64,000 nt of DNA from Escherichia phage ime09. The translations under genes were made by a program, and so were the position numbers. Below the pieces are notes generated by a model that saw only the letters and a list, made by a program, of their open reading frames with translations, ran no database searches and was not told where the DNA came from. The DNA lies in the sequence record NC_019503.1. One strand, written 5' to 3'. Every line of letters begins with the position of its first letter. The stretch's first letter is position 1. Shown piece after piece: positions 35,125 through 37,875 of the stretch.

Positions 35125-35688
35125 TTATTTATCTAGTTTAGTTATTATAGCTTCTGCGGCAGCTTTTAGCTTAGATGCGGTGTTAATACGATTTTTAATT
35201 TCAGTATAAGCGTCGCCAAGAACATCAAGGCTATCAGAATAAACACTTACACTATTGCGTTCGCTATTTGAAATAGAACCTTTAGTTTTACGATCAAAAT
35301 CGGTGTACACGTCTTGAAGATCACGGGCTGCCTTCTTTGCATCATCCAATGCATCAAGAGCTTTATTCAAAGCATTAACGTATTTTTTAGTGTCGAACAT
35401 ATTCTTAGAAATTTTAACAGGTGCGCGTTCAGGAGTAGCTAACACAGATTTAGGAACCTGAGCGCCAGATGCCAATTTCTTAGAAATTTTGAAAAATGCT
35501 TTGTTGAATTTATTTTCTTGACTCATTGTAAAAGAACTATTATCGATGTTGTACATTTCAATAGCTTTAGCTTTCCACTTAAGAAAATCGCCGCGGTCTT
35601 TTGGGTCCAAGTGGAAAAATACTTTAGTAAGATCTGCTTCAGATGGTAATTTTGCTGCTTCGGTTAAAAATTCGGCATAGGTTTTCAT
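35125..35688 (-). CDS. Internal-protein-like (capsid targeting sequence) protein
   Basis: 187 aa beginning MKTYAEFLTEA; own terminator. Confidence 0.6.
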   Translation of the reverse strand: MKTYAEFLTEAAKLPSEADLTKVFFHLDPKDRGDFLKWKAKAIEMYNIDNSSFTMSQENKFNKAFFKISKKLASGAQVPKSVLATPERAPVKISKNMFDTKKYVNALNKALDALDDAKKAARDLQDVYTDFDRKTKGSISNSERNSVSVYSDSLDVLGDAYTEIKNRINTASKLKAAAEAIITKLDK

Positions 35689-35778
35689 TTAAAATCCTTG
35701 AAATAATTTATCGGTTGGTTATTAATTATTTATTACTTTGTTATTATCCGTAACAGCATTCTATATGTGATTCAAACT

Positions 35779-35806
35779 AAAAAGCCCCAACCTTTTGGTC
35801 GGGGCT
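35779..35806 (-). terminator. Rho-independent terminator after IP-like gene 35814..36287 (copy A)
   Basis: GCCCCGACCaaaaGGTTGGGGC hairpin followed by UUUUU on minus RNA. Confidence 0.7.
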
Positions 35807-35813
35807 AAGAATG

Positions 35814-36287
35814 TTATTTGATTTGTTTAGCAGACCAAATGCGGTCTTTAATAATTTTTTGGATGTCTTCAACATACTCAAGAGAGTGAACATGTGGGTT
35901 ATCTTTGAAACTATAAGCACGGGCTAACTTTTGGCCTTCGGTTTTGATTACTAAAAGCTCTTTAAGGATAGCTTCATATTTAGCGATAATTCCTTTAACG
36001 ATATTTTTTTCTTGTGCAGCTTTAGGATCTGCTTTAGGAGCAGGTTTACCCGAAGCCTTTGCAAAAGCAGCGCCAGTAGCAACTAAACTTTTCCAGGCCA
36101 TACTAACTGCATTTCCCGTAAATCCTTCTGCTTTCATGTCGCGAGCAAATTGGAATCGTGATTCGTCAGAAGCATCTTTATAGGAATATTTACCCGCTGC
36201 AATGGCTGCTTTTGCGACAGCTTGAATTTCGGTGCTAGATGCTTCATTTAACACCGCTTCATTTAAAAATTGAGCATATGATTTCAT
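35814..36287 (-). CDS. Internal-protein-like (capsid targeting sequence) protein
   Basis: 157 aa beginning MKSYAQFLNEA; late-promoter motif ~40 nt upstream; own terminator. Confidence 0.6.
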   Translation of the reverse strand: MKSYAQFLNEAVLNEASSTEIQAVAKAAIAAGKYSYKDASDESRFQFARDMKAEGFTGNAVSMAWKSLVATGAAFAKASGKPAPKADPKAAQEKNIVKGIIAKYEAILKELLVIKTEGQKLARAYSFKDNPHVHSLEYVEDIQKIIKDRIWSAKQIK

Positions 36288-36327
36288 CTTATTTCCTGTT
36301 TTAATTCGTGGATTTAATATACTACTA

Positions 36328-36335
36328 TATTTATA
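36328..36335 (-). promoter_or_regulatory. T4 late-promoter motif (TATAAATA on minus strand) upstream of IP-like gene
   Basis: plus-strand tatttata at 36328-36335. Confidence 0.5.
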
Positions 36336-36345
36336 CTAAAAAGCC

Positions 36346-36365
36346 CCAACCTTTCGGTCGGGGCT
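36346..36365 (-). terminator. Rho-independent terminator (copy B, near-identical to 35779-35806) ending the GC-rich noncoding segment
   Basis: GCCCCGACCgaaaGGTTGGGGC hairpin followed by UUUUU on minus RNA. Confidence 0.7.
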
Positions 36366-36369
36366 AAGC

Positions 36370-36676
36370 CTTGCGGCAACCTTGTCGGGGTTCCACCTGC
36401 TAAGGCAAGTGTTTGTACGAAACGCCGGGATTCGAACCCGGTTATTAAGCAGTTGACGCTACTCAATATTTTTAAAAGGCCATATCTCGACCATATCCGA
36501 ACGTTCCGTCAAAAACGCTACTCGGCTTACGGCAAAGATATTTCCTCGAATCGATAATTCTGTGCGCCGTTTCTGCTGTGATGTAAGGGGACATTAACAG
36601 ATCGTAAAGATTTGTTAATGCCAGTCCTTACCCAGGGAACATCAGTCCGACGACTTACCGGTAGCGACCCGGTTTC
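36370..36676 (-). ncRNA. Candidate stable structured RNA(s) adjacent to the tRNA cluster (possibly species-1/2-like)
   Basis: ~300 bp without any ORF of 60 aa or more, GC-richer than flanks, contains tRNA T-arm-like element CCGGG-TTCGAAT-CCCGG (plus 36424-36442) and ends at a strong terminator. Confidence 0.3.
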
Positions 36677-37027
36677 TTAATATTCTTTTAAAGCATCAAT
36701 CTGTTCACGGCGTTTACGCCATAAATCAATTACTTCATACGCAGATTCAGCATTTCGAATTGGACGGCATTTATATAAAGACTTGTGATTTTGATATTGC
36801 GTAGATAACGGAATTTTATCTAAAAGGTCTTTACGTTCAAAGTATTCGTAACCATCTAAGCCAAATGAACGATTTTTGAGAAATTGCCAATGACCATATT
36901 CGTTTTCGACATAAACATAATCCGCGTGTTGATAAAGCAAATTAATTACACGTTCAGAAATAACAGTGTCATTGTGATTAAAATAGAATGTCAAATCATG
37001 GACTACTAAATAAACATTACCTTTCAT
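36677..37027 (-). CDS. Hypothetical protein between tRNA-Arg and the candidate RNA region
   Basis: ORF track 116 aa; no recognisable motif. Confidence 0.5.
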   Translation of the reverse strand: MKGNVYLVVHDLTFYFNHNDTVISERVINLLYQHADYVYVENEYGHWQFLKNRSFGLDGYEYFERKDLLDKIPLSTQYQNHKSLYKCRPIRNAESAYEVIDLWRKRREQIDALKEY

Positions 37028-37043: not shown

Positions 37044-37119
37044 TGGTCGAGGCAGTAGGGATCGAACCTACGACCTAGGACTTAGAAGGTCCTTGCTCTT
37101 CCTTCTGAGCTATGCCTCG
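37044..37119 (-). tRNA. tRNA-Arg (anticodon TCT)
   Basis: Hand-folded cloverleaf on minus strand; anticodon loop CTTCTAA; CCA encoded. Confidence 0.85.
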
Positions 37120-37123
37120 TATT

Positions 37124-37198
37124 TGGCGGACGTGATAGGATTCGAACCTATAACCAATCGCTTAACAGGCGATCGCTCTGCCATTGAGCTACACATCC
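37124..37198 (-). tRNA. tRNA-Asn (anticodon GTT)
   Basis: Hand-folded cloverleaf; anticodon stem ATCGC/GCGAT, loop CTGTTAA; T-loop TTCGAAT; CCA encoded. Confidence 0.8.
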
Positions 37199-37202
37199 AA
37201 AT

Positions 37203-37289
37203 TGGTGGGGAGTGATGGAGTCGAACCACCCGAGTCGCAATGACAATGGATTTACAGTCCACACCGCTACCTCTACGGGATAACTCCCC
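37203..37289 (-). tRNA. tRNA-Tyr (anticodon GTA), long variable arm
   Basis: Hand-folded; acceptor GGGGAGT/ACTCCCC, anticodon loop CTGTAAA, long extra arm; CCA encoded. Confidence 0.8.
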
Positions 37290-37302
37290 TTAATTCTTAA
37301 TT

Positions 37303-37377
37303 TGGTGGCCCTGGGTGGAATTGAACCACCATCTGGCGATTATGAGTCGCTTGCTTGAACCTTCCAGCTACAGGGCC
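37303..37377 (-). tRNA. tRNA with CAT anticodon (Met, or Ile if lysidine-modified as for T4 tRNA-Ile)
   Basis: Hand-folded; acceptor GGCCCTG/CAGGGCC, anticodon loop CTCATAA, T-loop TTCAATT. Confidence 0.75.
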
Positions 37378-37378
37378 T

Positions 37379-37454
37379 TGGTGCTGATTGACGGAATCGA
37401 ACCGCCGACCTTCTCATTACAAGTGAGTTGCTCTACCTACTGAGCTAAATCAGC
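37379..37454 (-). tRNA. tRNA-Thr (anticodon TGT)
   Basis: Hand-folded; acceptor GCTGATT/AATCAGC, anticodon loop CTTGTAA, T-loop TTCGATT. Confidence 0.85.
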
Positions 37455-37459
37455 AAAAC

Positions 37460-37549
37460 TGGCGGAGGCGATAGGATTTGAACCTATGAGTCGCCGGAGC
37501 GACTGCCGGTTTTCAAGACCGGTGCATTAAACCACTCTGCCACGCCTCC
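37460..37549 (-). tRNA. tRNA-Ser (anticodon TGA), long variable arm
   Basis: Hand-folded; acceptor GGAGGCG/CGCCTCC, anticodon loop CTTGAAA, long extra arm. Confidence 0.85.
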
Positions 37550-37551
37550 AG

Positions 37552-37625
37552 TCTCCATACAAGGATTTGAACCTTGGACCTCCTGATCCCAAATCAGGCG
37601 CTCTACCAAACTGAGCTACACGGAG
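37552..37625 (-). tRNA. tRNA-Pro (anticodon TGG), CCA not encoded
   Basis: Hand-folded; anticodon loop TTTGGGA, T-loop TTCAAAT; abuts tRNA-Ser. Confidence 0.85.
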
Positions 37626-37635
37626 TAAATTAAAT

Positions 37636-37709
<74 letters not shown>

Positions 37710-37714
37710 AAATT

Positions 37715-37801
37715 TGGTGCGAGAAGTGGGACTCGAACCCACAAGGAAATCATTCCGCAGCATTTTAAGTGCTGTGCCTTTACCAATTTGGCCATTCTCG
37801 C
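37715..37801 (-). tRNA. tRNA-Leu (anticodon TAA), long variable arm
   Basis: Hand-folded; acceptor GCGAGAA/TTCTCGC, anticodon loop CTTAAAA, T-loop TTCGAGT. Confidence 0.85.
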
Positions 37802-37802
37802 G

Positions 37803-37875
37803 CTGGGAATAAAGGACTCGAACCTTTGCATCCTGGAATCAAAATCCAGTGCCTTACCAACTTGGCTAATTCCCA
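37803..37875 (-). tRNA. tRNA-Gln (anticodon TTG), CCA not fully encoded
   Basis: Hand-folded; acceptor TGGGAAT/ATTCCCA, anticodon loop TTTTGAT, T-loop TTCGAGT. Confidence 0.85.

Follow-up and report, generated by a model that had tools for sequence, protein, structure and literature searches.

What is encoded by the roughly 390 bases (36288-36676) that lie between two minus-strand reading frames close to the tRNA genes of a T4-like phage? The window analysed here, a stretch of 64,000 nucleotides of Escherichia phage ime09, comes from a Tequatrovirus, and 421 bases around the segment are 100% identical to those of phages IME339, UGKSEcP1 and others, with matches in 805 phage records. The original prediction for this segment, made from its letters alone, was one or two stable small RNAs of the kind that T4 carries next to its tRNAs, or else a tRNA-like element. 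Its compositional observations are borne out. Between the ORFs 35814-36287 and 36677-37027, both on the minus strand, no reading frame reaches 60 codons, the longest measuring 50, 40 and 34 aa, and the GC content of the segment is 45.2%, as compared to 38.4% and 31.6% in the two flanking ORFs. For the part from 36366 to 36676 it amounts to 47.9%, while the entire window has a GC content of 35.3%. The description of the segment as lying beside the tRNA cluster needs to be qualified, since the cluster is nearby but does not touch it: a 116-aa ORF (36677-37027) intervenes before tRNA-Arg. It should be noted as well that the first 49 bases of the segment (36288-36336) are merely the intergenic leader of the next gene.

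The rnaD-rnaC pair, mapped in T4 as early as the 1970s, provides the best explanation for this locus. We put the probability at roughly 0.93 that the minus strand encodes the small stable RNAs of the T-even phages, in the order rnaD and rnaC, followed by a conserved trailer and, as the end of the operon, the intrinsic terminator (Table 1). The T4 record carries annotations for rnaC ('species 1 RNA') and rnaD ('species 2 RNA') between tRNA-Arg and gene e.8, and both sequences, to which an alignment had been proposed as a check, are colinear with the segment. A three-way alignment of the window, T4 and phage RB68 stays colinear through rnaD, rnaC, trailer and terminator, and RB68, which is 97% identical here, has the ncRNAs rnaC and rnaD annotated at the aligned positions. 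The T2L GenBank record likewise annotates rnaD at the corresponding place. In T4, the tRNA cluster is transcribed as one precursor of ~1.75 kb that holds eight tRNAs together with the species I and II RNAs, and transcription stops after the species I gene (PMC2330249). RNA-seq and northern blotting have identified RNAC and RNAD as late RNAs 'of yet unknown functions' (PMC9697503). The colinear alignment with T4, the annotation of RB68 and this agreeing literature together support the earlier reading of small stable RNAs, in which the base-for-base correspondence to T4 rnaD and rnaC is joined by a tRNA-like, covarying fold of rnaC; we found nothing that contradicts the identity.

Table 1. Positions of the RNA genes, their predicted structural elements and neighbouring signals in the window. 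The mature ends of rnaC and rnaD are taken from the T4 GenBank annotation.
Feature	Position	Strand	Description
tRNA cluster	37044-37875	minus	10 tRNAs (ARAGORN and Rfam)
rnaD (species 2 RNA) homologue	36561-36680	minus	~120 nt; full-length alignment with T4 rnaD
rnaD hairpin H1, ACCGG-GUCGCUA-CCGGU	36657-36673	minus	predicted in 11/11 homologues
rnaD long arm	36562-36654	minus	predicted basal stem GUCGUCG / CGGCG-C-AC (36654-36648 with 36569-36562) and inner helix UGUU/AGCA
rnaD hypervariable apical arm	36581-36633	minus	predicted long hairpin
rnaD-rnaC spacer GAAUUA	36555-36560	minus	rnaD 3' end here is ...GGCGCACA
rnaC (species 1 RNA) homologue	36416-36554	minus	139 nt; predicted tRNA-like four-way junction; 137/139 identical to T4
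rnaC acceptor-like stem	36547-36553 (5' strand CGAUUCG) with 36424-36418 (CGUUUCG)	minus	predicted; 5 Watson-Crick pairs around tandem U.U
rnaC long arm P2 (D-arm position)	36477-36546	minus	predicted apical hairpin 36517-36502, loop UUGACG 36512-36507
rnaC hairpin P3	36443-36468	minus	predicted 10-bp stem, loop CGUCAA 36458-36453; compensatory changes in 8/10 pairs
rnaC T arm, CCGGG-UUCGAAU-CCCGG	36425-36441	minus	acceptor 3' strand follows immediately
Conserved 3' trailer	36366-36415	minus	50 nt; small predicted hairpins; nearly identical in T4
Intrinsic terminator of the tRNA operon, AGCCCCGACC-GAAA-GGUUGGGGCU and U run (UUUUU)	36337-36365	minus	stem-loop 36365 to 36342
Second terminator copy	35777-35808	minus	behind the next gene, outside the RNA genes; 1 mismatch in 32 nt

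How closely do the two genes resemble those of T4? For rnaC (NC_000866 70908-71046) the two copies differ by two substitutions only and are alike in strand, position and predicted fold; T4 rnaC is likewise the last RNA of the tRNA operon, ahead of a matching trailer and terminator. The rnaD of T4 (NC_000866 71053-71171) is alike in position, and the window matches it almost perfectly over the 5' 46 nt and 3' 22 nt, whereas the apical arm differs by many substitutions and indels. The alignment covers T4 rnaD positions 4-118, with the divergence concentrated in this central arm, and places the gene directly upstream of rnaC. The 3' end reads ...GCGCACCA in T4 versus ...GCGCACAG in the window. 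The two phages also differ upstream: in T4, rnaD comes directly after tRNA-Arg, whereas the phage of the window, which is of the RB32/RB51/T2 type, has the 116-aa ORF in between, with the 5' end of rnaD overlapping the stop codon of that ORF.

A protein-coding reading would attribute the conservation to small proteins, encoded by the 40-codon ORF at 36472-36594 or the 50-codon ORF at 36314-36466, both on the minus strand, or by an antisense ORF of 34 codons. All three frames do occur in the window, and many related phage records have a 'hypothetical protein' annotated over the segment. The 40-codon frame, already named in the original prediction as a possible reason for the conservation, is however not kept among the homologues, being truncated in T4 and shifted to a different frame in RB68, while SP18 and KIT01 lack it. 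On neither strand do the genera have an ORF of at least 25 aa in common, and in eight homologues there is no such ORF at all. Furthermore, the homologues differ from each other by 1-nt indels and by compensatory changes in helices, a pattern that is not codon-like. Since in RB68, SP18, KIT01 and every homologue outside Tequatrovirus the frames are interrupted or lacking, small proteins are largely refuted as the source of the conservation, and we regard them as extremely unlikely.

The downstream end of the locus is marked by the trailer and the terminator. The duplicated terminator that had been pointed out beforehand was recovered by a terminator scan, as two minus-strand copies (36365 to 36342, and 35806 to 35783) that each consist of a 10-bp stem, in which 7 of the pairs are G-C, a loop of 4 nt and a T run. 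The 32-nt terminator repeat is present in exactly two copies in the window, where 0 are expected by chance. In Dhakavirus phages without rnaC, the trailer ACACUUGCCU..., which in T4 follows rnaC, comes directly after rnaD. A conserved trailer, closed by a terminator at the 3' end of an operon, would also be expected if the segment were merely a cis-acting 3' untranslated or regulatory region (with processing signals, a 3' stabiliser and the terminator) that yields no free RNA products, and 'non-coding regulatory region' is indeed the term used for it in PMC12685909. Yet in four other genera rnaC sits in the middle of an array, among tRNAs and not at the end, and rnaC and rnaD occur independently of one another. 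Moreover, stable RNAs of ~140 and ~120 nt are documented for T4 (PMC9697503, PMC2330249; GenBank annotations of T4 and T2L), and a purely cis-acting role is highly improbable.

So what structure does rnaC adopt? The single-sequence MFE of rnaC is -50.2 kcal/mol (z = -4.55), and RNAalifold, applied to 12 sequences, results in a four-way junction that matches the MFE fold. Comparative modelling shows a predicted architecture in which the ends of the RNA form a 7-position acceptor-like stem that is stacked on a canonical T arm, with a 70-nt arm (P2) in the position of the D arm and a 10-bp hairpin (P3) in the position of the anticodon or variable arm; an A-rich linker runs between the P2 arm and the P3 hairpin. 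The T-stem-loop sequence CCGGG-TTCGAAT-CCCGG, which had been spotted from the DNA, is indeed present and lies inside rnaC (minus strand 36441-36425). Covariation was assessed by aligning 19 distinct sequences, taken from seven genera and from viral contigs, with plain MAFFT. On this alignment 92.5% of cells pair, as opposed to 35-46% when the partners are slid by 1-3 columns, and compensatory changes are found in 16 of the 36 pairs; the observed values were reached by 0 of 500 shuffles. In an alignment of 24 sequences that is fitted to the model, pairing amounts to 97.1% of cells and compensatory changes occur in 31 of 45 pairs, although these figures lean towards the model by construction. 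A conserved secondary structure, the absence of which had been put forward as an argument against a structured RNA, is thus present in the form of a covariation-backed fold.

The compensatory changes are spread over the helices to different extents. In the P2 arm they are found in all five pairs of the apical stem (MAFFT alignment) and in all twelve of the main helix (model-fitted alignment). The Watson-Crick pairs of the acceptor-like stem are maintained in all 19-23 sequences, with a compensatory change in 1 of 7 positions, namely the third pair, which is A-U in Tequatrovirus and G-C elsewhere. The T stem pairs in 100% of cells and has one compensatory pair out of five, the middle one, which can be G-C, U-A or A-U. 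Its loop is canonical in 16 of the 19 sequences, the other three having the non-canonical UGCAUCC or UGCAUGC.

With an acceptor-like stem and a T arm, rnaC is partly tRNA-like, yet it is not a tRNA. The case for a tRNA would be that the 3' 94 nt form an odd, class II-like decoding tRNA, with the internal CGGAACG serving as the 5' strand of its acceptor. This internal strand can pair with CGUUUCG in Tequatrovirus, and does so perfectly in the homologue L023, in which ARAGORN reports a 95-nt tRNA-Met. In addition, rnaC has a UUU within a CUUUUAA context, and the RefSeq record of G4507 annotates the 3' part of rnaC as tRNA-Lys(UUU). In the segment, Rfam gives a weak tRNA-Sec match, at 16.6 bits versus a gathering score of 47, and a covariance model built from the rnaC fold, which locates a single copy within the window (169.6 bits), weakly matches genuine tRNAs (14-23 bits). 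In the window itself, however, neither ARAGORN nor the Rfam tRNA model (RF00005) detects a tRNA at 36288-36676. The tRNA fold of the 3' part is equalled or surpassed by 407 of 500 shuffles, its acceptor is without any compensatory change, and its stability is lower by 13 kcal/mol. It cannot coexist with three helices of rnaC that show strong covariation (the apical stem, P2 and P3), it leaves the supposed anticodon stem unpaired, and the annotated 5' end of T4 rnaC is located 46 nt further upstream. On account of the shuffle test, the stability and the helix conflict we rejected it as the functional fold, and we consider a decoding tRNA very unlikely. That rnaC descended from a tRNA gene is plausible nonetheless, but this concerns its origin and not its present function.

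The four-way junction of rnaC brings two hairpin loops into the picture that are related in sequence: the P2 loop UUGACG and the P3 loop CGUCAA are fully complementary, and the complementarity is found in 19 of 19 sequences. Four Marfavirus-type sequences have UUGGCG together with CGCCAA instead, a double change in two otherwise invariant segments that turns one A-U pair into G-C, and UUGGCG is there exactly the loop that is closed by CACGU/ACGUG. This suggests that the P2 and P3 loops of rnaC form a kissing interaction. As a single evolutionary event underlies the evidence for it, the interaction is well indicated, short of proven. For some rnaC homologues, pseudoknot-free folding prefers a long-range helix between the P2 and P3 loops over the two hairpins, a preference that would be explained by the strong loop complementarity.

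Another possible tertiary contact involves G75, the first G of the GG that precedes CCU in rnaC. At this position a C is found in exactly those three sequences that have UGCAU(C/G)C as their T loop instead of UUCGAAU, and no other column outside the T loop divides the sequences in this way. A contact resembling that between the D loop and T loop of tRNA may tentatively be proposed via G75. In the rnaC of LC53, C75 can extend the P2 helix instead, and the contact stays tentative because of this alternative pairing.

The fold of rnaD is of a different make. Its MFE is -39.9 kcal/mol (z = -3.68), and the comparison of 11 sequences shows a modelled structure that consists of a 5' hairpin (H1) and a long arm, whose base is invariant and whose tip is hypervariable. 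Among these 11 sequences, almost no change is seen in the 5' 46 nt and the 3' 22 nt; since the core of rnaD varies so little, covariation says little about its fold. H1 has one compensatory change, from A-U to G-C, in mar005p1, and the basal stem is paired in 100% of cells without any variation. For the inner helix, the pair U38-A105 has 3 compensatory changes and gives a better fit than the MFE alternative, which was set aside as the version with weaker support. The apical arm, on the other hand, comes in three non-homologous versions (the T4 type, the JS98/SP18 type and the IME540/T2L type), each of them a hairpin between invariant flanks. T2L carries the version that is otherwise found in the Dhakavirus IME540. 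A shorter rnaD-like element was seen in the tRNA region of Marfavirus. A kink-turn in the conserved internal loop, considered upon inspection by eye, was dropped since, on the non-bulged strand, the GA dinucleotide does not directly border the C stem. UAGCG, a sequence present twice in rnaC, is a complement of the H1 loop GUCGCUA; we take this complementarity as chance because it is lost in Marfavirus-type homologues.

The distribution of both RNAs among the T4-like phages indicates that they behave as separate modules. We found rnaC to be conserved in at least seven genera. Tequatrovirus, Gaprivervirus, KIT01 and Marfavirus-type phages carry both rnaC and rnaD, while Karamvirus, Moonvirus, Gelderlandvirus and Winklervirus have rnaC without rnaD, and several Dhakavirus phages (JS10, IME540, IME341, MX01) have rnaD without rnaC. 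As several Dhakavirus phages do without rnaC, and Karamvirus and Moonvirus without rnaD, neither RNA is indispensable. In Karamvirus, Moonvirus and Gelderlandvirus, rnaC occupies a place in the order tRNA-Trp or tRNA-Met, rnaC, tRNA-Gly, filling a gap of ~150 nt flush between these tRNAs in Moon, Melville, Entb_43, VPA32 and ZX13, whereas in the Winklervirus LC53 it is located between tRNA-Phe and tRNA-Trp. The spacers that flank it in the tRNA arrays of these other genera measure 5-6 nt per side, as they do among ordinary tRNAs, and the spacer that corresponds to the one between rnaD and rnaC is a 5-nt AAUUA or AACAA between the CCA end of a tRNA and rnaC. Occupying an ordinary tRNA slot, with tRNA-like spacers, rnaC is thus inherited like a tRNA gene. 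Loose gapped patterns of the form TTCGAGGA...GGCGTTCCGT against metagenome and genome collections gave 120+120 listed loci, among which nhmmer found no true homologue, and tighter patterns on viral contigs yielded nothing beyond the T4-like contigs that were already known.

How would such RNAs be released? RNA D and RNA C may be transcribed as the distal part of a polycistronic tRNA precursor, from which the tRNA-processing enzymes of the host would release both. In T4 precursors it is the tRNA domain, with its acceptor and T arm, that RNase P recognises, and for some T4 tRNAs the CCA is not encoded (PMC11143913). Given the acceptor/T-arm module, RNase P could cut RNA C at its 5' end, with 3' trimming taking place next, and the 3' end of RNA D could then arise from that same cut, followed by trimming back to its basal stem. 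Judging by the ordinary tRNA slot and the tRNA-like spacers in other genera, rnaC is probably excised by tRNA-processing enzymes. Three features fit this proposal less well: the conserved tandem U.U in the acceptor-like stem, the U-ACA tail and the three non-canonical T loops.

As to function, we can offer a guess, to which we ourselves give perhaps one chance in four: RNA C, without decoding, could imitate the upper half of a tRNA and bind or titrate a host or phage factor that binds tRNA, and might, together with RNA D, tune the infection in a host-dependent manner. Somewhat less likely still is the wider proposal that RNA C is the founder of a class of tRNA-shaped phage RNAs, present in at least seven genera and inherited in a tRNA-like way, which would have kept the acceptor/T-arm half and locked its arms by kissing loops in order to pass for a tRNA with some host factor (RNase P, the CCA-adding enzyme or a defence nuclease directed at tRNAs, for example), while it would set a host-specific efficiency of infection along with RNA D. 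For the host-specific role of RNA D, two points can be cited. The only convergent mutation in a T4-like phage adapting to a semi-permissive host lay in rnaD, being one SNP that arose in three lines adapting to the host ECOR34 (PMC12685909), and the apical arm of rnaD has been swapped between phages.

The feature itself is not new: it is the long-known rnaD-rnaC pair of T4, which was already known with identical sequences in hundreds of GenBank phage records. What is added here is a fold for rnaC that has covariation behind it and includes a candidate kissing interaction, and the distribution and modularity of rnaC and rnaD. Most of these records leave both genes unannotated, while others carry a spurious 'hypothetical protein' and one a false tRNA-Lys. 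An Rfam scan, which had been suggested as a check on the prediction, matched no family on the coordinates of rnaC or rnaD, at gathering or at permissive thresholds, in the window or in four divergent loci, and Rfam has a family for neither RNA. Given this missing family and the poor annotation, a covariance model for rnaC would correct the records across a large group of phages. Furthermore, the question of function is ~50 years old, the biological roles of RNAC and RNAD being given as unknown in PMC3014915 (see also PMC9697503), and the present findings provide handles for experiments, namely the kissing loops, the acceptor/T-arm module, the synteny with tRNA slots and the independent natural presence or absence of rnaC and rnaD.

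Compared with known tRNA-like systems, rnaC resembles tRNA in its predicted acceptor-like stem, which joins its two ends, and shares with it the 5-bp T stem with a UUCGAAU loop right before the 3' strand of the acceptor. It also has a GG just 5' of the 3' strand of a 3-bp helix in the D-arm position, and its place in tRNA arrays, with spacers of 5-6 nt, is that of a tRNA. Unlike tRNA, rnaC has no anticodon arm, it carries a 70-nt arm where the D arm would be, and its acceptor includes the tandem U.U. The counterpart of the anticodon arm is a 10-bp stem with the 6-nt loop CGUCAA, versus the 5-bp stem and 7-nt loop with U33 of tRNA, and the 3' tail in the window is U-ACA and not CCA, U-CCA being found only in Marfavirus-type homologues.

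An acceptor-like stem and a T arm in an RNA without an anticodon arm are also seen in the tRNA-like domains of tmRNA and of the Y-RNA-like YrlA, which raises the question whether rnaC might be a miniature version of either. ARAGORN, however, reports no tmRNA in the window, and no tmRNA or YrlA match from Rfam covers rnaC in the window or in the four divergent loci; the weak matches to YrlA (RF02553), below 26 bits versus a gathering score of 69, are all on genuine tRNAs. Moreover, the third acceptor pair of rnaC is A-U or G-C, not G.U like the G3.U70 of tmRNA, a tag reading frame is lacking, and at 139 nt the RNA is far below the size of tmRNA. We therefore assign almost no probability to rnaC being a tmRNA-like or YrlA-like molecule. 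As the RNA C of T4-like phages, it has another size and other additional domains than tmRNA and YrlA, and the likeness is in design principle only: each retains the acceptor/T-arm half of a tRNA but does not decode.

Downstream of rnaC, the homologue of the species 1 RNA, lie two genes, each preceded by a copy of the 32-nt terminator repeat (see table). The products of these genes begin with MKSYAQFLNEA (35125-35688) and MKTYAEFLTEA (35814-36287), which are identical at 8 of 11 positions, and beyond these first 11 residues the two proteins are scarcely alike. From the sequences, the terminator repeat together with the gene start looks like a repeated module.

An exact match to the T4 late-promoter core, TATAAATA, was found directly after the T run of the terminator, and ORF 35814-36287 starts approximately 40 nt downstream of it; the Shine-Dalgarno-like AGGAAAUAAGAUG belongs to this same ORF. 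Since both elements are located there, the first 49 bases of the ORF-free segment in which the original prediction had placed one or two stable small RNAs (36288-36676) are the leader of the next gene, and fall outside the RNAs. A second motif, TATAAATG, matches the late-promoter core at 7 of 8 positions and is located within ORF 36677-37027, approximately 90 nt upstream of rnaD, the species 2 RNA homologue. As judged by this match, TATAAATG could be a source of late rnaD and rnaC transcription that does not depend on the tRNA promoter; this would agree with the published classification of both as late RNAs (PMC9697503).

Features of the region between the downstream genes and the tRNA array
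Feature	Position	Strand	Remark
Two genes downstream of rnaC	35125-35688 and 35814-36287	-	
32-nt terminator repeat copies	35777-35808 and 36336-36367		One before each downstream gene
TATAAATA	36328-36335	-	
TATAAATG	36768-36775	-	
116-aa ORF	36677-37027	-	Its TAA stop overlaps the predicted rnaD 5' end (36677-36680)
tRNA array	37044-37875		Ten genes: Gln, Leu, Gly, Pro, Ser, Thr, Met-CAU, Tyr, Asn, Arg

The predicted 5' end of rnaD overlaps the TAA stop of the 116-aa ORF, and the annotation of T2L (locus L009) contains the same overlap, with a CDS at 1164-1514 and rnaD at 1511-1626. The hypervariable apical arm of this T2L rnaD is the version otherwise found in the Dhakavirus phages IME540 (L010) and IME341, although T2L is a Tequatrovirus. 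This match suggests that the arm has been swapped among phages, by recombination within its invariant flanks.

Variation was also observed among the rnaC homologues. In Marfavirus F48 and related viral contigs (L017, L019-L021), the acceptor 3' strand of rnaC is followed by an encoded U-CCA (GUUCCGUCCAA), whereas U-ACA stands at this position in all other homologues; L017 and L019-L021 also carry the compensated kissing-loop pair. In LC53 (L018), L022, L025 and L026, the T loop is UGCAUCC or UGCAUGC in place of UUCGAAU. The GG preceding the CCU strand is changed to CG in LC53, L025 and L026, and only in those three within the T-loop comparison, from which L022, likewise reading CG, was left out. 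This joint change possibly reflects a contact like that between D loop and T loop, or a coincidence of lineage.

Public records annotate the locus inconsistently. A few name rnaC and rnaD, while most have nothing, or a 'hypothetical protein' across both; one record bears the label 'Early E3 16 kDa glycoprotein' or 'endonuclease' here, and in the RefSeq entry of phage G4507 (L271, NC_054919) the 3' part of rnaC (578-671) is labelled tRNA-Lys(ttt).

The segB homing-endonuclease gene is absent from the tRNA array of the window. The T4 array, in contrast to these ten tRNAs, combines eight with segB, and that of RB68 carries a truncated segB where tRNA-Pro would stand.
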